Source: a virus (Duplodnaviria; Caudoviricetes). Taken from it: a DNA stretch of 64,000 nucleotides. The notes under the pieces are model-generated. The model saw nothing but the letters and a program-made list of their open reading frames with translations. It ran no database searches and was not told where the DNA came from. The stretch covers positions 7,795-71,794 of IMG/VR virus record IMGVR_UViG_3300009712_000884; one strand, given 5' to 3'. Numbering within the stretch: the stretch's first letter is position 1; every line of letters begins with the position of its first letter. Positions 17,105 to 64,000 of this stretch are shown piece after piece. A program made the translations under genes and the position numbers.

Positions 17105-17554
17105 ATGAGAATTTATTTAGCTCATCCTATTTCGGGTACAAGTTTTTCTACTACAGCACGGTATTTTTTGAAAACAGCGAAGGTTTTACGAAAGATGGGG
17201 TATAAAGTTTTACATCCTTTAACGGGAAAAAAAGAATTGAGGTGTGAATTAGAGTTGAAAGCCGAGGGTTATCAACATCCTGTAGCTACAAATCATGCAA
17301 TTGTTAGAAGAGACAAGTGGTCGGTTGAGCATTCTGATGTCTTTTTCTTGAATTTGGAAAATGCTACTGATATTTCTGTAGGTTGTGTAGCAGAACTGGC
17401 GTGGGCATATGCTAAGAATATTCATTCTGTAGTGGTGTTACCAAAACAAAGTAAAATGCGTCATGCTTTTGTGTTAGAGATGTCAGATGTTATATTTGAG
17501 ACAACTTCTGAAGCACTGAAATATTTGAGACGGTTGATAAAACAGCGGTTATAA
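17105..17554 (+). CDS. Nucleoside 2-deoxyribosyltransferase / nucleotide N-hydrolase (NDT/Rcl-like)
   Basis: IYLAHPI, IVRRDKWSVEHSD, SVGCVAELAWAYA; start at ATG 17105. Confidence 0.7.
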   Translation: MRIYLAHPISGTSFSTTARYFLKTAKVLRKMGYKVLHPLTGKKELRCELELKAEGYQHPVATNHAIVRRDKWSVEHSDVFFLNLENATDISVGCVAELAWAYAKNIHSVVVLPKQSKMRHAFVLEMSDVIFETTSEALKYLRRLIKQRL

Positions 17555-17577
17555 TGATTAATTACAAGGAGAGCAAA

Positions 17578-18204
17578 ATGAACATAGAAAGACACAAAAG
17601 AGCACAGTTGATAGAAAGTATAGAAGGATTGTTTGAAATGGTTGCTAAAAACAATATAGATAAGATTAAGGAACTGCTTGATAAAGGTGTTGATGTAAAT
17701 GTACAGGATCCATACGGTTATACACTACTTCATACAGCTATGTATTGGTGTCTTACGGACATGATCAAACTTTTACTCGATTATGGGATAAAGGTGGATA
17801 GAAGAGACGAGTATGGTCGTACGCTACTTTATTTTGTTGTACACAATGAATACACGAGCATAGCTAAACTTTTACTTGACTACGGAGCTGATGTAAATAT
17901 AAGGGACGCTTTTGGCTGGACACCACTTCATGAAGCTGCATATTATGTCAGTCCAAATACAGCCAAACTTCTACTTGAGTATGGGGCTAATCCTAACACA
18001 AAGAATGATGAAGGTAAGACACCGATAGACCTAGCAAAAGAAAACGGTTGTGACAATATAGTTCAGTTATTAGAAGAATACAATAAACCTTGGAACCAGA
18101 TAGAAAGAGAATTCGGTAAAATAGAGTTGTCAGAGTATGAAAGACAAAGCTTAAAGTTAAGTCGAATTTCACAGAAAAAGTTAAAAAAGAGGAGGATGCT
18201 ATGA
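17578..18204 (+). CDS. Ankyrin-repeat protein with KRAQ leader
   Basis: Repeats GYTLLH, GRTLLY, GWTPLHEAA, GKTPIDLA with LLLDYGADVN; start at ATG 17578 (AAGGAG RBS). Confidence 0.93.
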   Translation: MNIERHKRAQLIESIEGLFEMVAKNNIDKIKELLDKGVDVNVQDPYGYTLLHTAMYWCLTDMIKLLLDYGIKVDRRDEYGRTLLYFVVHNEYTSIAKLLLDYGADVNIRDAFGWTPLHEAAYYVSPNTAKLLLEYGANPNTKNDEGKTPIDLAKENGCDNIVQLLEEYNKPWNQIEREFGKIELSEYERQSLKLSRISQKKLKKRRML

Positions 18205-45116: not shown

Positions 45117-45716
45117 ATGCCACGTCCAAGACCTGATTTACCTGAAGAAGAAGTACAAAAACTGGTTGAGGAAGCACAGAAGCAAAAGGAATATCCAATA
45201 TGCGGCTATGTATCATTAAAATCTGATGGTGCAATTACAGTATGTAAGATGAAAGCAGGTTGGGGTACACAACATCCTGGTGTGGGATATTGTAGAAAAC
45301 ATGGTGGTGTAGGTCGACCTATTGTAACAGGTTTATACTTAAAGTACAAACCCGGTAAAGAATTGAAAACACTTTATCAGAAAGCTCAGGAGTTACATGT
45401 AAAACAGATCCAGGATCACTTGGAGACTTTGCGTTTAATAAAAGTCGTCGTAACAGAATTATCACAGACGGTTGATTTAAATCCTGTTCGAGTTGATGAG
45501 TTGTTGAAATCATTAACTGTGCTGTTGAAAGCCGAAGAACTGCAGTTGAAAGCACAGGAAAAAAACATGTTTACAGTGGAGCAGGTTCTAAGTTTTGTAG
45601 GTCAGATTATACGTATTATTGAGGAAACAGTTGAAGAACCCGCGTTGATTACAAAGCTTTTAATGAAGATAAAAGAAAAGGTTGTTTTGTTTGAACGCGG
45701 AGAGGTGAATGAGTAA
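45117..45716 (+). CDS. Terminase small subunit (probable)
   Basis: CG...C...AG.GT.HPG.GYCRKHGG motif, immediately upstream of TerL; start at ATG 45117. Confidence 0.65.
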   Translation: MPRPRPDLPEEEVQKLVEEAQKQKEYPICGYVSLKSDGAITVCKMKAGWGTQHPGVGYCRKHGGVGRPIVTGLYLKYKPGKELKTLYQKAQELHVKQIQDHLETLRLIKVVVTELSQTVDLNPVRVDELLKSLTVLLKAEELQLKAQEKNMFTVEQVLSFVGQIIRIIEETVEEPALITKLLMKIKEKVVLFERGEVNE

Positions 45717-47502
45717 AAAGACGAAGAATTTACAGCTTGTTGAAGCATTGACTGGTTTGATTGATCAGGAGATATCAAAGTATCAGTCGGGTAATAAAAT
45801 ATGGGAGGAAAAACCAGTTGATGTTGAAGAGTTTGTGTATTCACCCGGTTTTCTTAACTGGAAAAATCAAGTATATCCTGGTGTAATAGAGGATTTAAAG
45901 AATGTTTTTGTGTTTGATGACGAGGGAAAGTTAAAACACAATGAGGTTGTGTTGATTGAAGGTTTGGGTAGCGGAAAATCACAGTTTGCTGCAATTGTGT
46001 TGATATATTGTGTTTACAGACTTTTGTGTTTACGTAAGCCTCAAACTTTTTATGGTTTAGCAGAAGGTGACAGAATACAGTTGATAAATTGTTCACCGTC
46101 TGCAGATCAGGCAAGAAAAGTTGTATTTACATATGTTGCTAATCATGTTAAAAGATGTGAGTGGTTTAAAAAGAAAGGTTATTTACCCGATCCAAATGTT
46201 GAGTCAGAACTGAGATTTCCAAAAGGTGTGTATATAACTCCTGGTAGCAGTACAGCTCGTACAATTATTGGTTCAAATCTTTTAGTAGCTGTTGTTGATG
46301 AGATGGCGTTTTTTGATCGAACAAAAGAGCACGACCAAGCAGAAGAGTTGTATACAACATTATCAGGTAGAATGAAAAGTAGATTTGGGTTGCAATATTT
46401 GTTTATTGGTGTTTCTTCTGCACAATATATTGATGATTTCATTGAAGAACTGTTTAAAAAGAATCAGTTGAATGAAAGAGGCTATGTTAAAAGAAGAGCT
46501 GTGTGGGAAGCAAAACCTGTTTCAGCATACCAAGGTCAAAAATTTCCTTTTAATGTTATTGGTAGTGATGGTACAGTTGTTGAAACATTGGAGGTACCAG
46601 TTGAGTATGAAACAGAATTCAAGCTCAACCCTTCACTGGCTTTGAGAGATCTAGCAGCAAGACCTTCATTAACAATACAACCATTTTTAAAAGAGTTTGA
46701 TAAAGTATTAATTAGTATAAATAAAGCACGTGTAAATCCGTTGCCTGAATGTGTTGACGCGTATGGTAATCCCGAACCTATCTCTCCTTTACAAGCTTAT
46801 TTACGATTACCAGATTGGTTTAAAGGTAAGGAAGATGTAAAATATGTGATTGGTCTTGACCTTGCGAAAGGTGTAAAGGATAAATGTGGTTTTGCTTTGG
46901 TGCGTTTGGATAGATATGACGACAGAGTGAGATTTGATGCCGAAGGAAGACAAGTAGTAGTGAAGTTACCAGTTGTGTACGTTGATCTTGTAACACGGTT
47001 TGTTGCACAACCGGATAGTGAGATTGACTTTTCAGAAATCAGAGAGTTTATTCATAAATTAAATATTGAAAAAGGGTTTCGTGTTCACCTTATAGTTTCC
47101 GATACTTATCAAAGTCTTGATTTTAAGCAAATTATGTTAAGCATGGGATATAGGTTTGAGGAGTTTAGTGTTGATTCACATCGGATTGCATATGACACAT
47201 TTCAAAGTCTGGTTTATGATAGTAGACTTGATTGGTATGACCATACACCTTTGTTGTGGGAGTTACAGCGATTAGAAGACCAAGGAACAAAAGTAGATCA
47301 CAGTCGTACTTCTACAAAGGATATGGCTGATGCACTTGTTATTGCATGTTATTTTGCCGTGGGTGAAAAAACAATAAAACTTTCAGGCGATTCATTAAAA
47401 CGAAGAAGTATAAAAGGCGCGACAGCGAGAGGTGTATTTTCAGTAGATACGCCTTTTAGTAGTAATCCTAACGGCATGAATATTAGAAAAATTTTACCGT
47501 GA
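45709..47502 (+). CDS. terL: Terminase large subunit
   Basis: Walker A GLGSGKS, Walker B VVDE, nuclease IGLDLA and KDMADA. Confidence 0.88.
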   Translation: MSKKTKNLQLVEALTGLIDQEISKYQSGNKIWEEKPVDVEEFVYSPGFLNWKNQVYPGVIEDLKNVFVFDDEGKLKHNEVVLIEGLGSGKSQFAAIVLIYCVYRLLCLRKPQTFYGLAEGDRIQLINCSPSADQARKVVFTYVANHVKRCEWFKKKGYLPDPNVESELRFPKGVYITPGSSTARTIIGSNLLVAVVDEMAFFDRTKEHDQAEELYTTLSGRMKSRFGLQYLFIGVSSAQYIDDFIEELFKKNQLNERGYVKRRAVWEAKPVSAYQGQKFPFNVIGSDGTVVETLEVPVEYETEFKLNPSLALRDLAARPSLTIQPFLKEFDKVLISINKARVNPLPECVDAYGNPEPISPLQAYLRLPDWFKGKEDVKYVIGLDLAKGVKDKCGFALVRLDRYDDRVRFDAEGRQVVVKLPVVYVDLVTRFVAQPDSEIDFSEIREFIHKLNIEKGFRVHLIVSDTYQSLDFKQIMLSMGYRFEEFSVDSHRIAYDTFQSLVYDSRLDWYDHTPLLWELQRLEDQGTKVDHSRTSTKDMADALVIACYFAVGEKTIKLSGDSLKRRSIKGATARGVFSVDTPFSSNPNGMNIRKILP

Positions 47503-50955: not shown

Positions 50956-51282
50956 ATGATAGAAATGAAAGAAATAGTAGGAAAAAGAACAGCTCAGAAT
51001 GACGCTGAAGAAGCACAGAGAGAACTGAAATATCATATTGAACGAATTGAAATACTTCTTGGAAAGCTTGAAAGAAATATAAATGTTGTGAGTGAGATAA
51101 AAAATGAATTAGAGAAAATAGAAGAGATATTTGCAGAGTATGGAGATCAATTTTCAGAGATTTCAGCGGAGGATTATCTGATTAGAAAATTAGAAAGACA
51201 GAGTAGGAGGAAGACTGATTCTGGAACAAAGAAGATTACAAGTGTAATTGCAGCCAGGATAAAACAGCCTTTGGTAAAGTAG
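50956..51282 (+). CDS. Hypothetical coiled-coil protein with RTAQ leader
   Basis: AGGAG RBS before ATG 50956; MIEMKEIVGKRTAQ. Confidence 0.55.
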   Translation: MIEMKEIVGKRTAQNDAEEAQRELKYHIERIEILLGKLERNINVVSEIKNELEKIEEIFAEYGDQFSEISAEDYLIRKLERQSRRKTDSGTKKITSVIAARIKQPLVK

Positions 51283-51336
51283 TTAAAGTTTTGAGTAAAT
51301 AAATATGTGAAAAAAAAAATTCAAAGAGGAGGAAGA

Positions 51337-52122
51337 ATGAGATTGATAGATGTAGTTGATTATTCAACACCTGTTTATCTTGTACCACTTGGCGATGTTC
51401 ATCTTGGTGCTTTTAACGTGGATTTTCAGAAGTTTGAGGGTTATGTAAAGTGGATAAAGGAGAATAATGCTTACACTGTTTTGATGGGTGATTTATTTGA
51501 TGTTGCAACACTGGATAGTGAAACTAGTCCATTTGAGCAAAGTATGTCACTGAATGAAGCAATGCGTTATTTGAAGAATATTTTGTATCCTGTAAAGGAC
51601 AAAATTTTGTGTGCGATCGAGGGAAATCATGAATTGAGATTAAGAAAGAAGGCAGGTTTTTCGGTGACGGAAAGTTTTTGTGACCAACTTGGTATAACAT
51701 ATGCAAAGTTTTCCGCTGTGTTGAGATTTAGAATCGGTCGTAAACGAAGATCTTTTCCTGAAATGACGTCTCCAAGGATAGAATATATGCTTTTTTGTCA
51801 TCATTCTACAGGAGGAGGTCGTACAATAGGAGGTCGATTGAACAGAGCTGAACAGTTGAAGTTTATATTTGAAGGCGCTGATGCTTATATAATAGGGCAT
51901 AATCATGCGAAAGCACTGGGCGAGGAAGATGTGTTTCGTGTTGTAAAATCGGGTAATGGTAAAGCAAAGGTTGTAAACTGTCGAGTTTATTATATTGACA
52001 GCGGTTCGTTTTTGATTTATGAGGGTTCCTACGCGGAAGCAAGTATGTTACGACCAACAAATACAGGTGCTGTTCGAATACGAATGAATGGAGTAAGAAA
52101 AGATTTGCATGTATCTTATTGA
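51337..52122 (+). CDS. Calcineurin-like metallophosphoesterase
   Basis: GDVH, GDLFD, GNHE, HH, GHNH; start at ATG 51337. Confidence 0.88.
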   Translation: MRLIDVVDYSTPVYLVPLGDVHLGAFNVDFQKFEGYVKWIKENNAYTVLMGDLFDVATLDSETSPFEQSMSLNEAMRYLKNILYPVKDKILCAIEGNHELRLRKKAGFSVTESFCDQLGITYAKFSAVLRFRIGRKRRSFPEMTSPRIEYMLFCHHSTGGGRTIGGRLNRAEQLKFIFEGADAYIIGHNHAKALGEEDVFRVVKSGNGKAKVVNCRVYYIDSGSFLIYEGSYAEASMLRPTNTGAVRIRMNGVRKDLHVSY

Positions 52123-52202
52123 AAACAGAAGCAGAAAGTCCAGTAGGTTGATGGAGTAATAAAGTTTTTTGTTTATACAATAATTTTGTAAAGGAGGATA
52201 AA

Positions 52203-52784
52203 ATGTTGGTAAAGAGGTCACAGTTGAGTGAAATTCCTTCGTACATTGATGTTACAAAGGTAGCAGAGAGATGTAAAGAATCAGAACGAGAGTTTAAATC
52301 AGTGTGGAAAAGCGAAGGAGATCATATTTGTAGAACTGTTGACGACGAGGTTGTTACACTTGTTAATGATGAAAAGAAAGCACAGTTGATGGAAAACAAG
52401 GAAGAATCGTTTGAAACAGGTGTTTACTATCCGGCAGTAACTAGAAGTGGAGACAGGTTGTTGACAACGATGTTACTTTCTGGTTTACAAAAAGACTTGG
52501 TAAAAACTGATTTTGTGAAGGGTTTGTGGACATTGCCGATTGAGATTTTATATGGTCTGAAGAGTAAAGAGATTATCAAGGGTTTTTCAAGTAAGACTCC
52601 TGGTTTAATGGAAACTGCTACTTTCTTTCTTTCATTATTTGGTGAGTCAAAGTTACTTTCTGATGGTAAAACTCGAGTAATTGATGTTCCGGCTCATAGA
52701 TGGTGGGAAGCGTTACATGCATTGCTTGAGAATGAATATGTAGAGTTATTTTCTGAGAGGAAAATAGAAAAGTTGAAGGTGTAA
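52203..52784 (+). CDS. Hypothetical protein with KRSQ/KKAQ motifs
   Basis: AAGGAGG RBS; MLVKRSQ; KKAQ at 52374. Confidence 0.55.
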   Translation: MLVKRSQLSEIPSYIDVTKVAERCKESEREFKSVWKSEGDHICRTVDDEVVTLVNDEKKAQLMENKEESFETGVYYPAVTRSGDRLLTTMLLSGLQKDLVKTDFVKGLWTLPIEILYGLKSKEIIKGFSSKTPGLMETATFFLSLFGESKLLSDGKTRVIDVPAHRWWEALHALLENEYVELFSERKIEKLKV

Positions 52785-52785
52785 G

Positions 52786-53025
52786 ATGGCAGTTTGGGAT
52801 GAAATTGTTAACGCTGCACATAACCAAAAGACTGTGGAGATAACTTACATGAAGAAATCAGGCGAAGTAGTAATACACGAAGTAGAGCCGTATTCAGTTA
52901 GAGGAAATCTGTTTTATGGTTATCGTGTTGATGTAGGTGAAATAAGAGCTTTTTTGATTGATAATTTAATAGACGCGCGTTCAACAGGTAATCATTTTGA
53001 ACCACGTTGGCCGATAGAACTGTAA
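52786..53025 (+). CDS. Stand-alone WYL-domain protein
   Basis: VEITY....G.....VEPY.......YGY......RAF..D.I. Confidence 0.7.
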   Translation: MAVWDEIVNAAHNQKTVEITYMKKSGEVVIHEVEPYSVRGNLFYGYRVDVGEIRAFLIDNLIDARSTGNHFEPRWPIEL

Positions 53026-53043
53026 CAGAAACAGGAGGAAATT

Positions 53044-54453
53044 ATGCTATTTAATAGAATTACACATGCAAAACTGAGACCATTGGAAGCCTCGGATGTT
53101 TATTCAGATTTCAAGCAGTTGTTACAGGAAGCTACATTTCATGTAAAGAAGACAGCTAGAAGATTTGGTGTTAATTTACATAAGGTAGAATATGTAGACG
53201 ACGAGCCCGGTGAGGTTGATTATCCACGTTTTAGTAACGGGCTTATAGTGTTGAAGGGATACTATGTACATAAAGGTAGAAGACGTTATTTTTATGCAGG
53301 TTTTCAGGTTGAGAATGGTAAAGTAAAACCGCTGGATATTGTGTATGACGAACAGAAGCAGCCTTATGAATTTACACGAGAAGGAATAAAGCGTTTACTT
53401 GGTGATTGGAAAACAAGTACAAAAGGTGGTTTAACTTTTTTTCGAAAGTTTGAAAAAGCGTTATTACAGAGAGATATTGAAAAGCCGAATGAAAAGGAGG
53501 GAGTAGTAGTCGACGAAGAGACCAAAGGTAAAGAGATTGTTGCGATTGTAAATAGCAAAGGAGAAAGAGAATATGTACCTGTTGTATGTTTAAGTAAAAT
53601 ACCAACCGTGTTGAAAACAGCACAAAAAGAGGAAGAAGATATAGAAGAGTTACCTTTACGTGTACACAGAGTAAAAAAATTTCCCGAATCTACTCAATTT
53701 CCTATTGAAACTAAAACTCCTGAGTCATTACAACAGTATGTTGATATGATAGATAAGTTACTAGATTTACAAGAATCATTAAAGGAGGATGCGAGAAAGA
53801 TTTTACAGCAGTATGAAGAAAGAAAAGAATCGGTAAGTGAAGAAGTAGTTGCTCTGGCAAAAAAAATCCTAGGAGATGCAGAGATACAAGATAACAGAAT
53901 TTATGATATAGGTGATAAACTTGTTTTAATACAAAGAGCATGGATTAGTTCACGCATAAAGAAAAGACCTGATGCAGAACAGGTTTACAATCTTGCACTA
54001 GCAGAGTTAGACGAAGAGTTGAAGGAAAAAGTATTAAGGAAAGTTGAAGAGCTAAAGAAAGCCTTGACTGTTGAGGTTGGTGTAATTGGTCCAAAAATTG
54101 AGTACAAGTATAAAGCTCCTGAGATACAAGAATCAAAACCTTCAGCAGAAGTAGTTGAGAAAAAAGGACAATTTAGTGATTTGTTTGATGTGTATGAGGA
54201 GTATACTGAGGGATTACTAAAGGTACAATCAATTCTTGATACACTTTTTTACAAAGTGAAAGAACAGTCATTACCTAAAATACCGTTAGGCAAAGAAGCA
54301 CAACTAGAGTGGTCAGAATCTTCTACACATGCATATTTGAAACCAAGACGTACGTATGCACAGGTGCAAAAGAGAATATCTGTAAGTCAGATAATAGAAG
54401 AGTGGAACAAAGGTAATATTTCAGAAAAGAGAGTTCTTGAGTTAATGAAGTGA
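53044..54453 (+). CDS. Multi-segment hypothetical protein (KTAQ, KKGQ, KEAQ motifs)
   Basis: AGGAGG RBS; motifs at 53614, 54160 and 54292. Confidence 0.55.
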   Translation: MLFNRITHAKLRPLEASDVYSDFKQLLQEATFHVKKTARRFGVNLHKVEYVDDEPGEVDYPRFSNGLIVLKGYYVHKGRRRYFYAGFQVENGKVKPLDIVYDEQKQPYEFTREGIKRLLGDWKTSTKGGLTFFRKFEKALLQRDIEKPNEKEGVVVDEETKGKEIVAIVNSKGEREYVPVVCLSKIPTVLKTAQKEEEDIEELPLRVHRVKKFPESTQFPIETKTPESLQQYVDMIDKLLDLQESLKEDARKILQQYEERKESVSEEVVALAKKILGDAEIQDNRIYDIGDKLVLIQRAWISSRIKKRPDAEQVYNLALAELDEELKEKVLRKVEELKKALTVEVGVIGPKIEYKYKAPEIQESKPSAEVVEKKGQFSDLFDVYEEYTEGLLKVQSILDTLFYKVKEQSLPKIPLGKEAQLEWSESSTHAYLKPRRTYAQVQKRISVSQIIEEWNKGNISEKRVLELMK

Positions 54454-54483
54454 TATTTTTCTTTTGACATAGGAGGTAAGAAG

Positions 54484-54843
54484 ATGAAAATAACGTCGGT
54501 TGAAATTAGTTTAGTGTCTGAAAAAGCAAACAGTCGACTGAGAGGCTATGCAAAAGTAGTTTTTGATGATGTTTTTGCGGTAAGTAATATTAGAATTATC
54601 GAAGGCAGAGGAGGTTTGTTTGTCGCAATGCCGAGTAGGGAAAAAACGAGACCTTGTCCTTCATGTAATACTACTGTTGCTTTTAGAGATGCGTTTTGTA
54701 AAAAGTGTGGAAGTTCATTAACTGTTGTAAGGTCGGCGGCTTGGTATAAAGATGTTGCTTATCCTGTTACAAGTACGTTTGCAAAACAGCTTTCAGATAG
54801 AATACTGATGGAGTATGAAAAGTATTTGAAAAGTAAAAGTTAG
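54484..54843 (+). CDS. spoVG: SpoVG-family protein with inserted Zn ribbon
   Basis: MKITSV..LRGYAKVVFDDVFAV..IRIIEG..GLFVAMPSR [CPSC..FCKKCG] YKDVAYPV. Confidence 0.85.
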   Translation: MKITSVEISLVSEKANSRLRGYAKVVFDDVFAVSNIRIIEGRGGLFVAMPSREKTRPCPSCNTTVAFRDAFCKKCGSSLTVVRSAAWYKDVAYPVTSTFAKQLSDRILMEYEKYLKSKS

Positions 54844-54860
54844 AAAAATACAAATAAGAA

Positions 54861-55160
54861 ATGATTACACTTTATCGTTCAACAGGTGAAAGAGTAGGTT
54901 TTGTTAAGAATAATATTTTGTTTTCAAACGACGGTGTAAGTATCGGCTATGTTAAAGGTAATGACGTCTTTTTAAATGATGGTGTTTACATGGGTCGTTT
55001 ATTACATTTCGGCGATAGATATATGGTTTTAAGACAAAAAGCAGTGATCGGTGTAAAGGGTGTATCAAAGATATCAGAAGTCAGTTTTTTACCTGTTTTA
55101 CCGAATACTGTAAAATTAACAAAAGTTATTTTACCTGTGGGTTGGCAGGATGCATTATAA
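54861..55160 (+). CDS. Repetitive beta-strand protein (4-fold beta-flower-like)
   Basis: Repeated G..[VIM]G[FYR][VL]....[LV]F..DG units. Confidence 0.5.
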   Translation: MITLYRSTGERVGFVKNNILFSNDGVSIGYVKGNDVFLNDGVYMGRLLHFGDRYMVLRQKAVIGVKGVSKISEVSFLPVLPNTVKLTKVILPVGWQDAL

Positions 55161-55183
55161 TTATAAAAAGTATAGGAGGTAAA

Positions 55184-56122
55184 GTGAATGGGTGTGAAAA
55201 GAAAGACAGGTTTGTCAAGAGCAAGAATAAAATCAGTAGTCAGAAGAAACAAGCGATTAATACAAAAGCTCAAACATCTGTGATTTATCCTACTGCTGAT
55301 GATGTTTTTTATATTGCTGATTTGATAGCCAAACAGTCAAATCAACAGGTTATTCCTTTAAAAGATTGTAGAGGAAAAATTGAAGCAGCTATTGCAAGAG
55401 CACAGGGAGTTTATTTTGGCCGTGAGTTGTTTCCTACATTATTTAGTAAAGCTGCAGTATTATTAACATCTCTTGCACTTGCACATCCTTTTTCCGACGG
55501 TAATAAAAGAATTGCGTCAGCTGTAGCACTGGCTTTTCTTGAAGAAAATCTTGGTGTATCAATTACTCTAGCATTTCAATTGGTTGATGAGTTTGTTGAA
55601 CTGGTTTTAGGTGCGGTTCAACGTCATGTAACTGTTGAAGAAGTTGAGAAATGGTTTGAAAAGAATATTGGCACAATAAAAAAGCAGGGTTGGTATGTGG
55701 GTTTGATTGATAGTTGTTTAATGAAACTTGCACAGAATGAGAGAGAGGAAGAACTCGATCTCAATTCTGTTATTCCAAATTTTGAATACATATTAAGAGA
55801 TTGTGTTCGTAAACAAGTAAAAAGAAATTTGTCTTATGTTGTTAGGTTCTTTAACGATGATGTATATACACAGCTGTGTGATACAGTTTGGCGTTATCAG
55901 TTAGATACTATTGATATTTGTGATGTTGATGCTGATCAATTAGACTTTATGTGGGATTCGTTTGAGGATCTTCTAGAGGATTTAGAAAATTATATTCCTG
56001 ATATAGAGGAAAGAGTTTATGAGGGAGATTCGGGTGAACTTACACCTTTTGGTGAAGTATTAAAAGCATGGTATGAAAACGATGCTCCAGAAATATTTGA
56101 GGATTTTGTGTATGACATATAA
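55184..56122 (+). CDS. Doc-type Fic domain plus an acidic C-terminal domain
   Basis: LFSKAA..L..AHPFSDGNKR; start moved to GTG 55184 (AGGAGGT RBS). Confidence 0.85.
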   Translation: MNGCEKKDRFVKSKNKISSQKKQAINTKAQTSVIYPTADDVFYIADLIAKQSNQQVIPLKDCRGKIEAAIARAQGVYFGRELFPTLFSKAAVLLTSLALAHPFSDGNKRIASAVALAFLEENLGVSITLAFQLVDEFVELVLGAVQRHVTVEEVEKWFEKNIGTIKKQGWYVGLIDSCLMKLAQNEREEELDLNSVIPNFEYILRDCVRKQVKRNLSYVVRFFNDDVYTQLCDTVWRYQLDTIDICDVDADQLDFMWDSFEDLLEDLENYIPDIEERVYEGDSGELTPFGEVLKAWYENDAPEIFEDFVYDI

Positions 56123-56383
56123 ACACGATATGTTGAATATGTAAACGGAATTGTGAAGCAGTGGGATGATAAGGTGGAAAAAGAGGTAAAGAAGTATAAA
56201 AGAAATCATGGTGGAGAAGAACCGCCAGATGAGTTTTATATACAGTTGGATAATACATTTCGGACATCTAATTCACTTGACGTGACTGAAGAGGTTTTTT
56301 CTGATCTATTTGAAGAGTATCCTTGGGAGCGAATGAAGCTTGAGCCCGGTGGTGATATAAAATTATCGATACATTATACATAA
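56123..56383 (+). other. In-frame continuation of the Doc-domain gene past TAA 56120-56122
   Basis: Same frame, open immediately after the stop (TRYVEYVNGIVKQWDD...); no RBS for GTG 56153. Confidence 0.55.
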
Positions 56384-56425
56384 TAAACACTGTGTTTAAA
56401 AAAATAATTTTAAACGGAGGTAAGA

Positions 56426-57019
56426 ATGAAAAAGATGAAAAGGATAGCAGTAGAGGATATTTTTGGATTTTTTTATGGATTAAAAGATTTGATTACTGAA
56501 AAATCGGAAGAATTACAAGAATTACTTGAATCACAACATCTGTTAAATGAAGCACGAGAGTTTACTGGTGCATACTATGGATTACTAAGTGATGTTGATC
56601 ACTTTCTTGATGTTGTTAACCGTGTGGAGGGAAAACTTGGTCCAGTAAAGGAGATATCTGAAGAAATACCAGGTGAGGAAATTACAATACCGATTACAAG
56701 AGAAGCTTTGGTTTCCGGCGAGGATGAGCACGAGGAGCTGCTTGATAAAAAACTTGGTTCAAACGAGAAAATTAAACCCGGTGATAGAATAACAACTCTA
56801 CCTCCTCTCGATAGGAAAGATAGCGTTGGTTCACAGTATGATCCAGAATTCTTAGCCGAAGAATGTGTTAGACTTGTTTCACATGGAGAAAGAATTGGTG
56901 GTGTGTATACATCAGTGAAAGAAGCGTTTGAGGAACTTGTAAAAAAAGATGTGAATTTAAATAAAAGTCAAATTGAAAAGACACGTGCAATATTGAAAAG
57001 CTGGGGCTTTACAGTGTAA
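56426..57019 (+). CDS. Acidic hypothetical protein
   Basis: GGAGGT RBS; 197 aa. Confidence 0.55.
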   Translation: MKKMKRIAVEDIFGFFYGLKDLITEKSEELQELLESQHLLNEAREFTGAYYGLLSDVDHFLDVVNRVEGKLGPVKEISEEIPGEEITIPITREALVSGEDEHEELLDKKLGSNEKIKPGDRITTLPPLDRKDSVGSQYDPEFLAEECVRLVSHGERIGGVYTSVKEAFEELVKKDVNLNKSQIEKTRAILKSWGFTV

Positions 57020-57051
57020 ATTTGTGCGGAGTTAAGCGAAAGGAGTTGTGA

Positions 57052-57345
57052 ATGAGACGAGAATTACGAAGAAAAGATGAGTATGTAGAAGAAATTGTAC
57101 TGACTAACGAGGAGTTGGAGAGAATAAAAGAACAAGCTGTCGATGAAAGTGTTTTTCGAAATACAGTACTTCAAGATCTATCACTTGTAAAGAAGAGAAT
57201 TGAACAGATGAACGGCTGTGTTAGAGAACACGAGAAACAACTGGCAGCTAATACAGTTGCACATAGGCTTTTTCTGTGGATTTTTGGAGTGCTTTTTTCG
57301 ATTATGATTGCATTGGCATCGTTATGGTGTAGCGGTTTAAAATAG
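57052..57345 (+). CDS. Coiled-coil protein with C-terminal TM helix
   Basis: AAGGAG RBS; LFLWIFGVLFSIMIALASLW. Confidence 0.55.
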   Translation: MRRELRRKDEYVEEIVLTNEELERIKEQAVDESVFRNTVLQDLSLVKKRIEQMNGCVREHEKQLAANTVAHRLFLWIFGVLFSIMIALASLWCSGLK

Positions 57346-57380
57346 AGTTTTTGAGTTATATATTGTAAAGGGAGTAAAAT

Positions 57381-58454
57381 ATGAAAAGAAAGGAGCAAAA
57401 TCAACAGGTGATTGATTGCACTGGTAAAACATGTCCTAAGTGTGGTGCTCCATTGATACCGATGACTGCTAAATCAGGTTCAATGTTTTGTGGTTGTCCA
57501 AACTGTGATGCACAGTTAAGAGGAGCACAAACAACACTCGAGCCATTTAAGAAGGGTGTAGACTATACAGAGCAGATTGATAAGGTTGAAAGGTTAAAGC
57601 TTGGTGATGGTGTGGTTGTTGACAATTCAGCATCAGAGTATTATGGTAGAGAAGGGAAAATAACAGGTTTTGATCCAACCGACAACACTAAAGCACTTGT
57701 TGAATGGCGAAACCCCGAAGGAAGTGAGCTTGTATGTTATATTGACATACATGATTTAAAGAAATTATACACTGCAAATTCTGAGTTAAGGGACATTTAT
57801 GAAAAAGAAGCTATTATAAAGAGATACATGTTTGACGATGAATCTAGAACTAGTAGTTTTAAAAAAGTTGCACCTTTTAAATCACCGCAGCAAGAAGCAT
57901 GGATGTGGATAAACGAGCCAGAAATTGCAAAGAAATGGTATAAAGAACACGGACATCATCTAGGTTATAAGAGTTGGTTAAAGAATAAAAAAAGAAAGAA
58001 AAAAGGTAAATTATTAAAAGTAGGTATGGGGTTGTATACAGTCGTTGTATTCAAGAGAGGTGTGACCAAGGATAGTCTTTATGGATGTGTATTTAATTTT
58101 GTTTATACATTTGATAAAGAGCATTACAGTAGAGTTATAAACAAGTTATTATCAATACCATTTTTCGCAGTTACAAATATTGTGGATAGAAACGGAAGAA
58201 GATACTGTGAACTTCAGCCTTACAATGAAAACCAGCATGTTATAGCAGAAGATTTAGATTTACAAGGTGTATTTGTTGACAGTGAATTACTTACTCCTTT
58301 TTTTCCATCCGCCGAAGGGGTGATGTATGTAGAAAGAAAGTCACAACTCAGGAATGACGTCTTATTAGAAGAACATGATAAACCTTGGAAACAGATAGAA
58401 AAAGAATTCGGTAAGATAGAGTTGTCAAGATACAAAAAAGCACAGTTTAGTTAA
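57381..58454 (+). CDS. Mosaic multi-module protein (C4 Zn ribbon, SH3/KOW-like, PFKS module, ankyrin-gene tail remnant)
   Basis: CPKCG..CGCPNC; LKLGDGVVV..GREGKI; PFKSPQQEAWMW..PEIAKKW; C-terminus shared with the 17578 ankyrin gene. Confidence 0.6.
   Translation: MKRKEQNQQVIDCTGKTCPKCGAPLIPMTAKSGSMFCGCPNCDAQLRGAQTTLEPFKKGVDYTEQIDKVERLKLGDGVVVDNSASEYYGREGKITGFDPTDNTKALVEWRNPEGSELVCYIDIHDLKKLYTANSELRDIYEKEAIIKRYMFDDESRTSSFKKVAPFKSPQQEAWMWINEPEIAKKWYKEHGHHLGYKSWLKNKKRKKKGKLLKVGMGLYTVVVFKRGVTKDSLYGCVFNFVYTFDKEHYSRVINKLLSIPFFAVTNIVDRNGRRYCELQPYNENQHVIAEDLDLQGVFVDSELLTPFFPSAEGVMYVERKSQLRNDVLLEEHDKPWKQIEKEFGKIELSRYKKAQFS
58362..58427 (+). repeat. 66-bp dispersed repeat; second copy at 18067-18132
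   Basis: 60/66 nt identical; both copies encode LLEExxKPWxQIExEFGKIELS. Confidence 0.95.
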
Positions 58455-58477
58455 AAGATGTAAAGGAGGTAAAATAA

Positions 58478-58918
58478 ATGAGTTATAGAAATCAAGTAAA
58501 ACAAGCACAGACGAGTAATCAGAAGACAGGTGATATGGTAAAAGATGTTGATGTGAAGATAGAGCCTGTTAAAGAAATACCTGAAACAGAAGAGCAGGAA
58601 GCTGTCGATATACTTAGTGAAGAACTTGGTGATAAAAACAAACCAGAAGGAGAAACAGTTGTTGATACTGAGAAAAAATCTGAGACAAGTGATGTAACAA
58701 AAAGAATAAAGCAAGTAGTTGAAGATGTAAAGAAGTTAAAGATAGCAATTCAGAACTATTTAATGAGTTCATATAAATTGAAATTATCTGAAGATGAACT
58801 TGACGAGCTTATGAGAAAGATATTATCTGCATTATCAAGTATAGTAGCAGATATTACAAGTGAGCGTGTTGAAAGTTTAGCAGAGAATGCAAATATATTA
58901 TTACCTTCAAAAAAATGA
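58478..58918 (+). CDS. Hypothetical protein with KQAQ leader
   Basis: AAGGAGGT RBS; MSYRNQVKQAQ. Confidence 0.6.
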   Translation: MSYRNQVKQAQTSNQKTGDMVKDVDVKIEPVKEIPETEEQEAVDILSEELGDKNKPEGETVVDTEKKSETSDVTKRIKQVVEDVKKLKIAIQNYLMSSYKLKLSEDELDELMRKILSALSSIVADITSERVESLAENANILLPSKK

Positions 58919-59199
58919 AAGAAAAAGAGAAAGAGTTTATTAAAAAAATACAACAATCAAAATCGATTGACGAATTAAAAGATTTAGTAGATAATTTTGT
59001 ACATACTGGTGCTGTGGAAAACGAGGAAAAGATTGATGCATTACTTGGTATATTGGATCAGGTACAGGTATTACGGAATGCTATAATTTATTTACAGAAT
59101 TATAGCATTGATAATGTGCGTTTACTTTCAAAAGTTCAGGAGTTGGTTGATGAAGTAAATGAGTTGCTTGATGAAACTCGGGTTACAGGAGGTGAATAA
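58915..59199 (+). CDS. Small helical hypothetical protein
   Basis: ATGA overlap; abuts the portal gene. Confidence 0.55.
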   Translation: MKEKEKEFIKKIQQSKSIDELKDLVDNFVHTGAVENEEKIDALLGILDQVQVLRNAIIYLQNYSIDNVRLLSKVQELVDEVNELLDETRVTGGE

Positions 59200-59201
59200 A
59201 G

Positions 59202-60848
59202 ATGCGGATAATAACAAGCAACCTAGACGACGAGTTTAGTAAAGCACGTGTGCAGAAATCATATGTTGTAACCGGTGAAGAAGAACTTTTAAAAAGAGCA
59301 AGTCGTGCACGTGTTGTTAGAGGTTCTCTTGCACCTTCTACAACACGAGTTGTTGAACCATTTTATTCGCCGTTTCTTGAGCGAACAACAATTGAACTTC
59401 CAACGAGTTATAAAGACAGAGTAAAATGGAGAAGGTATTTCTTTGAAAACGAACCTATAGTAGGAGCAGCACTCGAGCTTCATGCTGTATTTCCACTTTC
59501 AACATTTTGGATTGCACACGAGGATTCTATAATAAAACAAGATTTTGAAGATATGTGTGAAGAACTGGAGTTATTTGAATTTTTACTTGATATGTTGTTA
59601 GAGTATTGGATTTGTGGTGAGTGCTTTACATATGGGCTTTTTGACGATGCAGAAGATCCAACGATGTGGACTGAGTTTATACTTCTTGATCCTATGAAGA
59701 TTGATGTTAAGTGGGAACCTCTTGTTAGAAGTAAGAGAAAAGAAATAATTAGTCTTGAGCCATCAGATATGTTGAAAACAATTGTACAGAATGGACCGTC
59801 ACACGAGGAAACAGGTGAGCTTTATCAGATGTTGTCTCAAGATATAATCGATGTAGTAAGAAAAGGACAGCATCTTGTTTTAAATAATTTACAAGTTTCT
59901 CATATAAAGAGAAAAGGGAATTATTTTAATCCTCGAGGAACATCAATTATTGACAGATGTTTTAAACTATTAATGTATCGTGATAAGCTAAGGTCTGCAC
60001 AATATGCAATTGCTGATAGACATATTACACCACGTGAGTTTTATTTTCTCGGGGAGACAGGGGATCCAGCTTCACAAGATGAAATTAATGATTTTAGAGA
60101 TCTTCTAGCACAGCAATGGTCACAGCCAAACCAAGCTATAGTTTATCACCATGCAGTACGTGTTCAATGGGAAGGAGCAGCAGGACGTGTATTACCATTG
60201 CAACCTGAATTTGATTATATTGATAAACAGTTATTTGTTGCATTGCTAATAAACGAAGGGGTATTAACAGCTGAACGTCAACCTTATGCATCAACATCAG
60301 TTGCTCTTGATGTTATGATACAACGGTATTTAAATGTAAGAATGAGAATACAGAATTGGATTGAAAACAGAGTATTTAAGCCTATTTGTAAAATACATAA
60401 AATTTACAGAAGAACAGAAAACGAGTTGAAACATAGAATACGTTTGTCGGTAGATGAGGAGCGGTTGTGGATACCGAAAGTAAAGTGGGATAAGGAAGAT
60501 TTAAGAAATGATTTAAACAAAATAAGATTACTTGTTGAACTAGCAGATAAAGGTTGGATTCCGAGGGACATGGTATTGCCATATCTTAATGTTGATCCTG
60601 AAATAGCGAGAAAAGGAATAAAAGAACAGAAGATAAGAGATGCACGTGAGGGAATTACACCTTCTTCGGCTACAGGCGGTGGAATGATGGGTATGCCTGG
60701 TGTAATACCTGAAGTACCTCCGGAAGGTGAAATAGGTGAAGAAGCAAATTTACCTGAAATACCTGAAACTCCTGCACAAGGATATGGAGAAGCAGTACCT
60801 CCAGAAGCACACGAAGGTGAAGAAGGAACATTACCAACTGCTATATAA
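59202..60848 (+). CDS. Portal protein (probable)
   Basis: YFFENEPIVGAALELHAVFPL, L..LLEYW..GE, RGTSII.R, acidic Pro/Gly-rich tail; size and head-region context. Confidence 0.72.
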   Translation: MRIITSNLDDEFSKARVQKSYVVTGEEELLKRASRARVVRGSLAPSTTRVVEPFYSPFLERTTIELPTSYKDRVKWRRYFFENEPIVGAALELHAVFPLSTFWIAHEDSIIKQDFEDMCEELELFEFLLDMLLEYWICGECFTYGLFDDAEDPTMWTEFILLDPMKIDVKWEPLVRSKRKEIISLEPSDMLKTIVQNGPSHEETGELYQMLSQDIIDVVRKGQHLVLNNLQVSHIKRKGNYFNPRGTSIIDRCFKLLMYRDKLRSAQYAIADRHITPREFYFLGETGDPASQDEINDFRDLLAQQWSQPNQAIVYHHAVRVQWEGAAGRVLPLQPEFDYIDKQLFVALLINEGVLTAERQPYASTSVALDVMIQRYLNVRMRIQNWIENRVFKPICKIHKIYRRTENELKHRIRLSVDEERLWIPKVKWDKEDLRNDLNKIRLLVELADKGWIPRDMVLPYLNVDPEIARKGIKEQKIRDAREGITPSSATGGGMMGMPGVIPEVPPEGEIGEEANLPEIPETPAQGYGEAVPPEAHEGEEGTLPTAI

Positions 60849-60869
60849 ATAAAATAACAAGGAGTAAAA

Positions 60870-62114
60870 ATGTTTGATGCATTATTAAGAAAGTTAAAAT
60901 TAGTAAAAGGACAGAAACAAGAAGGTGAACAAGAGCAGGATGTAACAAGAAAGCAAAGGACAGAGAATAAGCTAGAGTTACTTTTTCAGGATACAGTTTC
61001 TTTGGATAAGAAGATACAGTTGTTAAATAAGGTAATTGGGGATGCAAATCAATTAGCTGCATTAAAGGAATATTTTTATTCAAATCCGCAACCTGTTGTT
61101 AAGTTGTGGACAGATGTGATTAATAATGCTATACAAAATGGTAAAAAAGATTTGTGGAACAAATATGTTTATTTTTTTGAAGCAACACTTGGAGTTGAGC
61201 CTGAGTTTTTAGTTACTGTGTTAACTCCAAAACAGATACTATGGAAATTCGCTTCTTATAATGTGCTTTTAAAGAATGAGATTTCTGCGTCTTGGGATGT
61301 CAAAAAGTATTTTCTTACATTTTTTACACAGAAACCTGAACTTTTTGACATGTTGTTGGAAGGTTATGATGACGAGGCACGATGTGAGATAGTAAAGCAG
61401 ATTGTAGATACATTATTTGCTTATTTTGGTACAGAAGGTCGTGAGTTGATAGGAAAGTTAATAAGGAATTCGCGGTTTATTACACCTGATAAACTATGTC
61501 GGTATTATGTAAGTAAAAAGTATAATACATCGATTCTTGAAGAGTTATTTACAGGAAAAGAATTAAAGTTAAAGAAAACAGAGTTGACTTTGCACGAGAA
61601 AACAGTTGATGAAGAGATGAAGCAAAAAACTTATGTTTTACCTACTTATATATTACAAACTTTTCTTGGAATTCCCGAAGCAGAGCAAATAATATCTCGT
61701 TTACTGTTGTTTTTCAAATCAATTTTAACAGGCGAGCAAACTAATGATAAAATAACAGGGTTTGGTGTGCATTTGCACGAGAAACTACAAAGCGATGGTG
61801 ATATACCTGTTGCTGATATTGCGAAAGTATTAAAAAGGTTTGGACTTTTACCTGCTTCGTTACAAAAGCAAACACCGTTAAGCGAGGATTCAGCTGATAG
61901 TTGGACAGGTGAGGAGTTGTATGCATTTGTTGGGCAGCTTTCATTAGTAGTGCATAGTTGGCTTGATTTAAGTAAAAAGTATAGAGAAAAAGGTATAAAG
62001 TTGTTTCCATATAAGCTTGGTGTACAAAAACCAAATCAGGTGTATGATGGTTTTTCAAAAGGTTTTGCTTTTGTACTTTATTTGCCAGATATTCTGCCTG
62101 CTAATGTTTCATGA
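60870..62114 (+). CDS. Helical hypothetical protein; probably the N-terminal part of a roughly 920-aa frame continuing to 63632
   Basis: AAGGAG RBS; KLVKGQ leader; ends at TGA 62112 in frame with the next ORF. Confidence 0.55.
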   Translation: MFDALLRKLKLVKGQKQEGEQEQDVTRKQRTENKLELLFQDTVSLDKKIQLLNKVIGDANQLAALKEYFYSNPQPVVKLWTDVINNAIQNGKKDLWNKYVYFFEATLGVEPEFLVTVLTPKQILWKFASYNVLLKNEISASWDVKKYFLTFFTQKPELFDMLLEGYDDEARCEIVKQIVDTLFAYFGTEGRELIGKLIRNSRFITPDKLCRYYVSKKYNTSILEELFTGKELKLKKTELTLHEKTVDEEMKQKTYVLPTYILQTFLGIPEAEQIISRLLLFFKSILTGEQTNDKITGFGVHLHEKLQSDGDIPVADIAKVLKRFGLLPASLQKQTPLSEDSADSWTGEELYAFVGQLSLVVHSWLDLSKKYREKGIKLFPYKLGVQKPNQVYDGFSKGFAFVLYLPDILPANVS

Positions 62115-62120
62115 AAGATA

Positions 62121-63632
62121 TTGAGTCAGTTACACAGTGCATTTCCTCACGCAAGGGAAAAACGTTCAGTTCCAGGATTAGGTCAAGTTGAGGTACCTGT
62201 TATTGGATGGGTAAGGATTTTGCCTTATTATATAAAGAAGATTGACTATGAGACGACGGAGAGTAAATATATTTGGTTAATAAACGAAATTCAGTCAGAT
62301 TTGTTACAGAATACACATGATTTACCTAAGAAGTTTCCTGACGCGCCAGAGGGTATGAGAGGTACATTGGAAAACATGTTTAAAGATTATCCAAAGGTAT
62401 TTATGAATATAGTTATAAAGAAAGCAAAAAGAGCAGGTGTTTCTGAAATCTGGATTCCTACCAGTGGTGAACTGAAACGTTGTTGGAGTGTCGGAGGTGA
62501 GAAAGTATTACAGTTGTTTCAAAGAGTTTATGATGGTCTTGCTGATTTCTATGGTGCGAAATTGATTGATGTAAAAAAGGAGCATGGTAAAGAGGTAATT
62601 GGTGATTTTGGTAATAGTTCTAAGGGTATACGTCAAGTATGGGTATTGGATGTTAATCAAGCAATGAGCAAAGTCGCAATGACGGTGTTGGATAATGAAG
62701 ACGAGAGAATGGAGGAAGATTTTAGTAAAACAGAAGAATTATTTAGCTGTAAAAAAGCACAGTTAACAGAAGAACCCGATTTCAGAGATAATTCTGTTTT
62801 AATACAGCAAGTAATGAGTTATATTGAAACTTATGTTAAAACTTGGTTTAGACAAATGAGAGGACAGATAGGTGAAGATTATGCAGGTTTTTCGGACGAA
62901 GAACTTGTGAGAGATGGTTTAATTAGTGCAATACAGATGTTAAGTGAAGGAGCATTACCAGCAATACCCGAGAATTTAAGATCAGAAGAGGAATTTTATG
63001 TATATGTGTTGAATAAGTTAAGAGAAAAACATTTTGAATATCCCGAAGATGTTGAATCTGTTGTTGGTCAAGCTTTATCGACTTTTACAAGTCAAGTGAC
63101 ACCAACAACCAGACAAATTGAATTACCCAGGGAAGATGTAATAGAGTTAGGCCCAGAGAGGGAGAATGAAATTCTTGATAAGTTGGTTGAGTTAACAAAG
63201 AAAAAGAGAGAACAAGGTTTAACCGAAGAAGAAGAAATGTGGTACGAGCTATATACATCGTTGCTTCACGGAAGAAAAGCACAATTTGACGATGCTACAA
63301 GAAATCAAGATGTTTTACAGTATGTGAGTGTTGTTGCAGCTGCTGTAGCTGCTTTTATAACAACATATACTCAAGTGATTGAGAGTGCACAAGAACAAGA
63401 TGAGTTAAATCAGCGATTTTCACACGAAGAGTTAATAAATTATGCATTTACTGAGTTTATAAAGAGAGTACGTGGAGGTGAAATTCTAGTATTACCATAT
63501 TTTCTTATGGACAATAAGAGATTTTTCAAAGAAGTGTTAAAATATCTAGAAACAGAGTATTCATTTCCATTAAAAGAATCCTCGGTTGACGACGCTTTCG
63601 TTGTTAGTTTTGAATATCCGATTGAGAGGTAA
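62121..63632 (+). CDS. Multi-module protein with an EIQSD-type domain and KKAQ/RKAQ-delimited acidic modules
   Basis: H...GWVR..INEIQSD..KAKRAG..IWIPT..YD; KKAQ at 62751, RKAQ at 63273; TTG start lacks an RBS. Confidence 0.55.
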   Translation: MSQLHSAFPHAREKRSVPGLGQVEVPVIGWVRILPYYIKKIDYETTESKYIWLINEIQSDLLQNTHDLPKKFPDAPEGMRGTLENMFKDYPKVFMNIVIKKAKRAGVSEIWIPTSGELKRCWSVGGEKVLQLFQRVYDGLADFYGAKLIDVKKEHGKEVIGDFGNSSKGIRQVWVLDVNQAMSKVAMTVLDNEDERMEEDFSKTEELFSCKKAQLTEEPDFRDNSVLIQQVMSYIETYVKTWFRQMRGQIGEDYAGFSDEELVRDGLISAIQMLSEGALPAIPENLRSEEEFYVYVLNKLREKHFEYPEDVESVVGQALSTFTSQVTPTTRQIELPREDVIELGPERENEILDKLVELTKKKREQGLTEEEEMWYELYTSLLHGRKAQFDDATRNQDVLQYVSVVAAAVAAFITTYTQVIESAQEQDELNQRFSHEELINYAFTEFIKRVRGGEILVLPYFLMDNKRFFKEVLKYLETEYSFPLKESSVDDAFVVSFEYPIER

Positions 63633-64000
63633 ATGATGACTTTTTTTACAAAATCATTTAAATACAAAAAAGCACAGTTAACAGAAGACGAAGAAGAATT
63701 ATTTGAAGCTGTTAAACAAGGTAATATAGACAAAGCCAAAGAATTACTTGATAAAGGTGTTAGTGTAAATGTAGTGACTAATGCTAGCTGGTCACTACTT
63801 TATTTAGCTGCGTGGGAAGGATATGTAGACATAGTCAAACTTCTACTTGACCATGGAGCTGATATAAATGTACAAAGTATGAGTGGTCGAACACCACTTC
63901 ATTACGCTGTGTGGAACAGGTACACAGACATAGTCAAACTTCTACTTAACCATGGAGCTAATGTAGATGTAAGAGACAACGAAGGTTGGACACCACTTCA
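63633..64000 (+). CDS. Ankyrin-repeat protein with KKAQ leader (3'-truncated by window; absent from the ORF track)
   Basis: MMTFFTKSFKYKKAQLTEDEEELFEAVKQGNIDKAKELLDKG..LLYLAA..GRTPLHYA..GWTPL. Confidence 0.92.
   Translation, partial: MMTFFTKSFKYKKAQLTEDEEELFEAVKQGNIDKAKELLDKGVSVNVVTNASWSLLYLAAWEGYVDIVKLLLDHGADINVQSMSGRTPLHYAVWNRYTDIVKLLLNHGANVDVRDNEGWTPL

Follow-up and report, generated by a model that had tools for sequence, protein, structure and literature searches.

Candidate prohead-protease processing sites, [KR]-x-A-Q, in proteins encoded around the portal gene of an uncultured relative of Bacillus phage G

Around the portal gene of an uncultured phage from sludge, a relative of the giant Bacillus phage G, about nine proteins, a Doc toxin and ankyrin proteins among them, carry the tetrapeptide [KR]-x-A-Q, and the question that this locus raises is what the motif is for. 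The DNA analysed here (the window, 64,000 nucleotides) corresponds to bases 7795-71794 of the 71.8-kb IMG/VR contig IMGVR_UViG_3300009712_000884, and the end of the window is also the end of the contig; its + strand holds all substantial open reading frames (ORFs), including every window gene described below, and positions are those of the window. A preliminary description of this DNA had proposed that the motif is a signal for a prohead protease. From the analysis of these sequences and those of related loci, we consider that [KR]-x-A-Q is, with a probability of roughly 0.6, the processing site of the phage's own prohead protease, placed at the end of leader tags and at internal cuts in multi-module proteins. 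The features that favour the proposal are that the motif recurs in relatives, that it lies at leaders and domain edges, that a sister motif exists, and that the clade encodes a protease with the gp21/assemblin fold. On the other hand, a cut directly after AQ, as was originally supposed, is not favoured by the comparison across lineages, which points to a cut after Ala.

The ten strict occurrences listed earlier (50986, 52374, 53614, 54292, 55724, 58434, 58499, 62751, 63273 and 63666) are all in frame on the + strand, as are RSAQ in the portal (59991), TKAQ (55262) and KRAQ (17596); one more strict site, RGAQ at 57519, had been overlooked. In the + strand ORFs from 50830 to the window end (the late set, 4,260 amino acids, aa), 12 [KR]-x-A-Q are present versus 1.19 expected from composition (Poisson p 5e-9), and none of 20,000 within-protein shuffles reached 12 late sites; the claim of a late enrichment thus holds against a composition background. 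Upstream of 50830 the 16,289 aa contain 7 occurrences (3.1 expected), which is near background. The portal occurrence (59991-60002; gene at 59202..60848) had been taken for a site, but it lies in the core motif KLREAQYAIADRH, conserved in 22 of 22 aligned portals and in phage G, and for this reason it is regarded as structural and is not counted as a site; without the portal the late count is 11 versus 1.04 expected. Since [KR].A as such is not enriched (34 versus 30.3 expected), the whole tetrapeptide is the unit. Likewise, [KR].XQ is enriched for X=A only, [KR].AX for X=Q only, and X.AQ for K, R and, weakly, T only. A scan of the late proteins made without prior choice of a motif gave AQ as the top enriched dipeptide (20 versus 8.4), which by itself is marginal after correction (p 4.6e-4 among 400 dipeptides); K.AQ ranks second among approximately 24,000 three-residue patterns, behind the zinc-ribbon pattern CP.C.

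The motif was also sought in related phages. With an alignment of 22 portals as the query, 6 viral and 45 metagenomic loci were obtained, a search of viral contigs with a single portal protein having given no match (hereafter, L-numbers denote related loci, P-numbers database proteins and X-numbers other sludge runs). In nine non-redundant related head loci (25-61% portal identity), and with the motif specified beforehand, 47 non-portal [KR]-x-A-Q were found versus 13.0 expected (p 3e-13). A 706-aa protein in the related loci carries six sites, and the leaders of the relatives include MFYRTAQ, MNKLAQ, MKRGAQ, VDRKAQ, MMIKFAQ and VKMFFKKAQ. The codons of the motif vary among relatives (GCT, GCC, GCG or GCA for Ala and CAA or CAG for Gln), and therefore the constraint is on the peptide. 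The supposed modular behaviour is also seen, given that the protein encoded at 58478 stands alone with its leader in the window and is embedded in a larger protein elsewhere; its L007 homologue sits in an 853-aa protein, directly after SRAQ, and the leaders of its orthologues are MATKKAQ in L025, followed by a zinc ribbon, and MVLAQ in L011. The looser variants that had been listed (KRSQ, KKGQ, VKGQ and RKSQ) show no excess as a class in the window ([KR].GQ 2 versus 1.3; [KR].SQ 2 versus 1.3); nevertheless, two orthologues have KKAQ/KTAQ at the place aligned with KKGQ (54160), and Gly can stand for Ala before Q in L007 ([KR].GQ 9 versus 2.1).

Another characteristic of the motif is its position within the proteins. 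Four window proteins have, as had been described, short leaders (7-14 residues) that end in the motif. In the 105-aa coiled-coil protein (50965..51282; ATG start with AGGAG 9 nucleotides upstream) the leader MKEIVGK is followed by RTAQ (50986-50997, residues 8-11) and then by an acidic stretch; in the 146-aa acidic/helical protein (58478..58918; AAGGAGG 8 nucleotides upstream), which is conserved upstream of the portal, MSYRNQV precedes KQAQ (58499-58510, residues 8-11). The ankyrin-repeat protein at 63633..63998, truncated where the contig stops and matched by Ank families of Pfam (1e-23 to 1e-27), shows the leader MMTFFTKSFKY, KKAQ at 63666-63677 (residues 12-15) and repeats from residue 17-20, with PHROG matches that begin at residue 10-17; its paralogue outside the head region (17554..18204) has the same kind of leader, KRAQ at 17596-17607 (residues 15-18) and an Ank_2 match from residue 28. 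The Doc protein carries a longer leader of 30 residues, basic and ending in TKAQ. Gene starts were refined by the position of the Shine-Dalgarno (SD) sequence, and the starts of these five leaders (50965, 58478, 63633, 17554 and 55184) are all SD-supported. In the window plus 11 related loci, the first 25 residues hold 17 of 73 non-portal sites versus 9% expected (p 2.5e-4).

Recognisable domains begin after the motif, in agreement with the preliminary description: the Doc domain follows TKAQ directly, and the ankyrin repeats start 2-10 residues after KKAQ or KRAQ. By profile coordinates, KLAQ lies approximately 20 residues past the end of the Doc domain and RGAQ 4 residues past the zinc ribbon. 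The residues around the motif, which played no part in picking the sites, are biased as well; of 53 sites from the window and its close relatives, 20 have a basic residue at x (7.7 expected), and residues 2-4 after Q are acidic in 15-17 (8 expected). Less weight is given to two further results. A single-sequence AlphaFold model of the ORF starting at 62121 places both of its motifs in predicted coil between helices, at a predicted local distance difference test score (pLDDT) of 39, and no usable match for this ORF was found in the ESM Atlas. The late sites reach the 74th percentile of their own proteins in the TOP-IDP disorder proxy, versus the 61st for the early sites, a weak difference that is biased because the K and Q of the motif raise the score.

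The Doc protein (55184..56122; GTG start with AGGAGG 4 nucleotides upstream) has the clearest arrangement of modules, i.e., the basic leader ending in TKAQ (55262-55273), the Doc domain, KLAQ (55724-55735) and a 128-aa acidic domain. Its identity is given by the active-site motif HPFSDGNKR, a Pfam Fic match above the cut-off (1.1e-11) and a PHROG Doc-like toxin match (1.4e-23). TKAQ aligns without gaps with REAQ of P0038, a 164-aa Doc homologue that is 49% identical. A predicted complex between the Doc domain and the fused acidic domain scored 0.00, a value uninformative either way, and in general Pfam and PHROG runs, with no dedicated search, no neighbouring ORF matched a Phd antitoxin. Contigs of other sludge runs were compared with the window over 55000-64000. 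The TAA that ends the Doc gene (56120-56122), with an in-frame 76-aa ORF behind it (56153-56383), reads CAA (Gln; T>C) in run X5, and the Doc protein is there extended to 399 residues; P0037 is exactly this 399-aa read-through, with Q at residue 313.

The post-portal multi-module protein (60870..63632) shows a similar variation. In the window it is split by TGA at 62112-62114, and no SD sequence precedes 62121 in this strain; in runs X3 and X5 the codon is TGG (Trp; A>G at 62114), which joins 60870-62114 and 62121-63632, both in the same frame, into one protein of approximately 920 residues. It has the leader MFDALLRKLKL followed by the variant VKGQ (60903-60914), and KKAQ (62751-62762) and RKAQ (63273-63284) are internal. 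Apart from the ORF itself, a homologue search with the 62121 ORF gave a single mosaic relative, P0036 (609 aa), whose final 186 residues are 98% identical to the end of this ORF (63072-63632), while its N-terminal 423 residues are unrelated and the junction is not at the motif. P0036 is a recent module swap, and module exchange is real in these genomes.

Three other proteins upstream of the portal carry the motif. One of 193 aa (52203..52784) has KKAQ at 52374-52385 (residues 58-61) followed by LMENKEE, and a coiled-coil protein of 490 aa, encoded between portal and protease in L010, is a relative of its C-terminal part. Another, of 469 aa (53044..54453), has KTAQ at 53614-53625, KEAQ at 54292-54303 and the variant KKGQ at 54160-54171; the latter, one of its three sites, is the one that aligns with KKAQ/KTAQ of the L013 and L011 orthologues (21-28% identical). 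The third (57381..58454, 357 aa) contains a zinc ribbon at residues 16-43, RGAQ at 57519-57530 and KKAQ at 58434-58445. Residues 158-200 of this protein (57852-57980) are 67% identical over 43 residues to L010:14750-14878, the C-terminal part of a 348-aa protein directly after the protease, and thus appear as a small module in otherwise unrelated proteins.

A related motif is used elsewhere in the clade. Phage G and its nearer kin show no excess of [KR].AQ (11 versus 12.3), but [KR].AS is in excess (13 versus 4.3 in phage G; 22 versus 3.1 and 15 versus 4.1 in kin), and A, G and N after [KR]-x-A are also in excess. In the phage G lineage this sister motif is found near the C-terminus of the protease itself, in two conserved positions (LEKVA|S and LLKIA|S), at the portal N-terminus (QRKMA|S) and at 10 sites in gp7 (931 aa). 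The conserved core of the portal is preceded, at a distance of 10-25 residues, by [KR]-x-A in 15 of 19 lineages, with S, N, Q, G, T, D or L as the next residue; the window portal has KRA|S in this place (KRAS, 59292-59303, residues 31-34), a candidate N-terminal processing site. Proteases of the relatives carry KFAQ or RTAQ at their N-termini. The residue after Ala therefore depends on the lineage: Q in the window phage, which strongly requires it, S, A, G or N in phage G, and W, S or N in another branch, which reads KKA|W and KFA|W. Because [KR]-x-A is constant across the clade and the next residue varies by lineage, a cut after Ala is the simplest reading, and the scissile bond is probably Ala|Gln. 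As a separate observation, a repeated module that begins with KKA|WFQG(S/N/A)(T/D)E(A/P)T is present in three or four different proteins of L044 and L046; it looks like a paralogous domain that always stands right after a candidate cut site.

The protease of the clade was identified in the relatives, where it is encoded 2-7 kb downstream of the portal. The L010 protein (L010:12477-13238) matches the PHROG head maturation protease family (1.5e-18) and shares 41% identity with phage G gp19 in a local alignment of 170 residues. Neither Pfam nor the PDB gave a match by sequence, with single sequences or profiles, and the fold search was what connected this family to known structures. A model built from a 14-sequence alignment (pLDDT 79) has T4 gp21 (5JBL) as its best Foldseek match, followed by six herpesvirus proteases, from Epstein-Barr virus (EBV), Kaposi's sarcoma-associated herpesvirus (KSHV), human cytomegalovirus (HCMV), pseudorabies virus (PrV) and varicella-zoster virus (VZV); the E-values are modest (1e-3 to 5e-2) and the list is consistent. 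With regard to the Ser-His-His catalytic triad typical of assemblin, His88 and Ser138 (L010 numbering) are invariant in the 14 sequences, and His164, within a Cys-rich insert, is invariant in 10 of them but not in all 14. The preliminary description had placed the prohead protease beyond the window; it is indeed found past the portal in relatives, and by this arrangement the gene of the window phage itself, which is not in the contig, would lie just past the contig end. Throughout the family (L010, L017, L015, L025, L003, L031, L030 and others) an invariant CxxC...C stands beside a mostly conserved His, and these residues resemble a zinc ribbon inserted after the catalytic Ser. In L007:13415-17566, L004:12363-15851 and L052:13664-18019 the protease constitutes the N-terminal domain of a long fusion protein (1,160-1,450 residues), and in L007 the domain appears interrupted or duplicated (BLAST segments at residues 49-184 and 487-575).

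How does this compare with the systems that have been characterised? T4 gp21 cuts after Glu in (L/I)-x-E, and herpesvirus assemblin (MEROPS S21) cuts (V/L/I)-x-A|S. To our knowledge, prohead-protease codes have been established by experiment for few phage groups (T4 and phiKZ/SPN3US), all of them cutting after Glu. The motif after which gp245 of SPN3US cleaves a large number of head proteins is A-x-E, and capsid targeting sequences are found in T4 (PMC10052503). The likeness to T4 lies in the leaders of approximately 10 residues on the internal proteins IPI-III and Alt, which terminate in the cleavage motif and are lost in the prohead, in a head that carries enzymes and toxin-like proteins, from which packaging in the window phage is proposed by analogy, and in the gp21 structure as the best fold match. 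In contrast, for T4 both cleavage and packaging have been proven, whereas for the window phage they are proposed, and the motif of the window lacks Glu, having instead a basic residue separated from Ala by one position, and Gln as the following residue. Given that the motif offers no Glu as the residue before the cut (P1; [KR].AE 1 versus 3.0 expected), a different specificity within the same kind of system is suggested.

With phiKZ gp175 and SPN3US gp245 the clade would share a motif present in many head proteins, in the portal and in the protease itself, multi-site propeptides in some proteins, and the cutting of large internal or ejection proteins (PMC10052503). However, their motif is A/S/G-x-E, whereas the proposed P1 here is Ala, and the portal, protease and capsid of the window clade are of the phage G type; the processing in the window phage is predicted from sequence. 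Assemblin has in common with the clade protease the fold seen in the EBV, KSHV, HCMV, PrV and VZV enzymes, Ala before a small or polar residue in the putative site (the motif of the phage G lineage is K-(V/I/L/M)-A-S) and, in the phage G lineage, a candidate site at the C-terminus of the protease. It differs in that sequence similarity is undetectable, in that the phage family has the CxxC...C zinc-ribbon-like insert, and in that the phage clade would require a basic residue at P3 and the window phage has Gln after Ala. As for Doc of phage P1, a Fic-fold kinase with Phd as antitoxin, the window protein resembles it in HPFSDGNKR and in the Fic and Doc-like profile matches, but its Doc domain is flanked by a basic leader and by an acidic domain of 128 aa fused to it, with the motif at both boundaries, and its gene lies between terminase and portal. 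No description of an Ala-type prohead code was found in the literature searched, the phage G mass-spectrometry paper being outside that search; a megaphage preprint gives no cleavage or per-protein virion data, and its supplement contains annotation only.

From these comparisons the following mechanism can be proposed. The cutting enzyme would be the phage's own serine protease of the T4 gp21/herpesvirus assemblin fold. Leaders of 7-30 residues that end in the motif may act like the capsid-targeting sequences of T4 and be trimmed inside the prohead, and internal copies would split multi-module proteins, e.g., the leader, Doc domain and acidic domain from one another, the zinc ribbon from the rest of its protein, and the parts of the post-portal protein of approximately 920 aa. 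By analogy with T4, it is plausible that the Doc toxin, the ankyrins and the other tagged proteins are packaged and ejected. A more elaborate version, which we put forward tentatively and hold to be on the doubtful side, is that the clade uses an assemblin-like code, basic-x-Ala|X, in which the residue after the cut (P1') has shifted from Ser to Gln, and which here tags injectable effectors; Doc would be a zymogen whose basic leader and fused acidic domain, possibly a built-in antitoxin, are cut off inside the capsid, and several ankyrin proteins would travel with this kinase. If the processing reading is correct, the head-internal and ejected proteins of many large uncultured phages could be predicted from sequence, capsid delivery of a Doc toxin and of ankyrin proteins would be indicated, and the cutting preference of a phage protease would be linked to that of herpesvirus assemblin, which has the same fold. 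The claim at the level of the clade can be tested, given that phage G is cultured and that mass spectra of its virions exist.

Several observations weigh against processing by a prohead protease. The contig stops 3.1 kb after the portal and no protease gene was found in it. The phage-G-type capsid proteins of the relatives are short and have no site, and L010-L012, the closest lineage, are weakly enriched (2-4 sites versus 0.6) and have a protease C-terminal site, EILA|S, that lacks K/R at P3. Site positions are conserved only in part among orthologues of the 469-aa protein at 24% identity, in which the two sites other than KKGQ are unaligned, and KKAQ at 58434 sits two residues before the stop codon, where cutting would achieve little. 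The sites at 17596 and 63666 are paralogous, so that the independent events are fewer than the raw count. In addition, GCA encodes 17 of the 19 motif alanines in the window; this bias is in part a codon-pair habit, since Ala before CA- codons is GCA in 78% of cases genome-wide. Lastly, motif-free genes for regulators of ordinary appearance (SpoVG and WYL) and for a phosphoesterase occupy the same interval, and therefore the block is not purely structural; the term head-region accessory proteins, used in the preliminary description, suits the position of the tagged genes around the portal and serves as a positional label only.

Other readings of the same motif have to be weighed. It could remain uncut, as a docking tag for scaffold, portal or capsid interior, or as a helix cap or linker in K/E-rich helical proteins. 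That the tetrapeptide can be purely structural is illustrated by the portal RSAQ/REAQ; the conserved LF[KR]RAQ[IV]EEY of the phage G gp15 family also looks structural, and a low-confidence model puts sites at the ends of predicted helices. However, the neighbouring patterns that favour helices ([KR].AE, [KR].AK, [KR].LQ and [KR].EQ) show no enrichment, a structural element needs more than the 3-12 residues of the N-terminal tags, and the sister motif at the protease C-terminus and the portal N-terminus occupies the classic autoprocessing and propeptide positions; we regard an uncut element as unlikely. It could also be supposed that another peptidase, of host or phage and with no role in head assembly, cuts these sites and that the tagged proteins are early or late cytoplasmic effectors that mature in the cell and not capsid cargo, a view that fits a tagged set with a Doc toxin, ankyrins and a paralogue in a metabolic gene block (17596), as well as the separate zinc peptidase that phage G encodes beside its terminase. 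Nevertheless, no homologue of the latter was found beside the window terminase (BLAST against L002), in the window as in relatives the enrichment does not extend beyond the terminase-portal-protease block, and sites are present in the portal and in the head protease of relatives, all of which makes this explanation improbable.

A signal at the level of the DNA has to be considered too, in which the A-rich GCACAR would be a recombination junction for module swapping and the peptide a by-product. The sites at 62751 and 63666 share 23 identical bases, the preference for GCA in the motif would be expected, in one other contig the shared part of the ankyrin gene begins only at the Gln codon (63675), and P0036 attests that modules are really swapped. 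This is countered by the finding that 18 of the 19 late occurrences of GCACAR are in frame (frame 0, + strand), the sequence being rare on the other strand, and by relatives that keep the peptide with varied Ala and Gln codons. Moreover, the bases around the window sites show no further relationship (no more than 32 of 60 are identical), the P0036 junction is off the motif, and GCA before CA- is a habit of the whole genome; a DNA-level origin is accordingly considered quite improbable. It could finally be argued that the motif was chosen after being seen in proteins that contain K, A and Q, and that AQ alone is marginal after correction, but the shuffles, the rank of K.AQ and the replication in independent loci mean that chance or composition can hardly account for it. 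Processing by the phage's prohead protease is thus the reading that we prefer.

With regard to the contig end, assemblies of several runs break or rejoin at 58362-58447 and 63675-64000 (joint 64000 -> 58379). Repeats of the ankyrin-gene tail and leader, shared between 58.4 and 63.7 kb, are the probable cause of the end at 64000. Depth rises approximately two- to threefold over 63.4-64.0 kb, suggesting that the genome has several ankyrin paralogues. The two in-frame stops raised the possibility of an alternative genetic code; this was rejected because both are simple strain polymorphisms, and TAA, TGA and TAG all end well-tiled ORFs.

The head block opens with the large terminase (45709..47502; phrog_2 3e-13), and between this gene and 50965 there is no match to the motif. 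The order of the genes is like that of phage G, with a sigma factor and the terminase, approximately 12 kb of mostly unknown genes and then the portal, which is 33% identical to gp14 of Bacillus phage G and matches phrog_16240 (1.5e-52). Strong AGGAGG ribosome sites precede most genes; a scan of 44.1-64 kb for promoters and terminators gave background levels. DNA of the window was detected in activated-sludge and bioreactor-sludge metagenomes of ten studies. Among the genes without the motif, the SpoVG-family protein (54484-54843; Pfam 4.8e-23) has a zinc ribbon inserted mid-protein, and a conserved counterpart precedes the portal in at least five related loci. The 79-aa WYL-domain protein (52786-53025) matches Pfam just above the cut-off (1.1e-4), and its homologue in L010/L011 (56% identical) is located between portal and protease.

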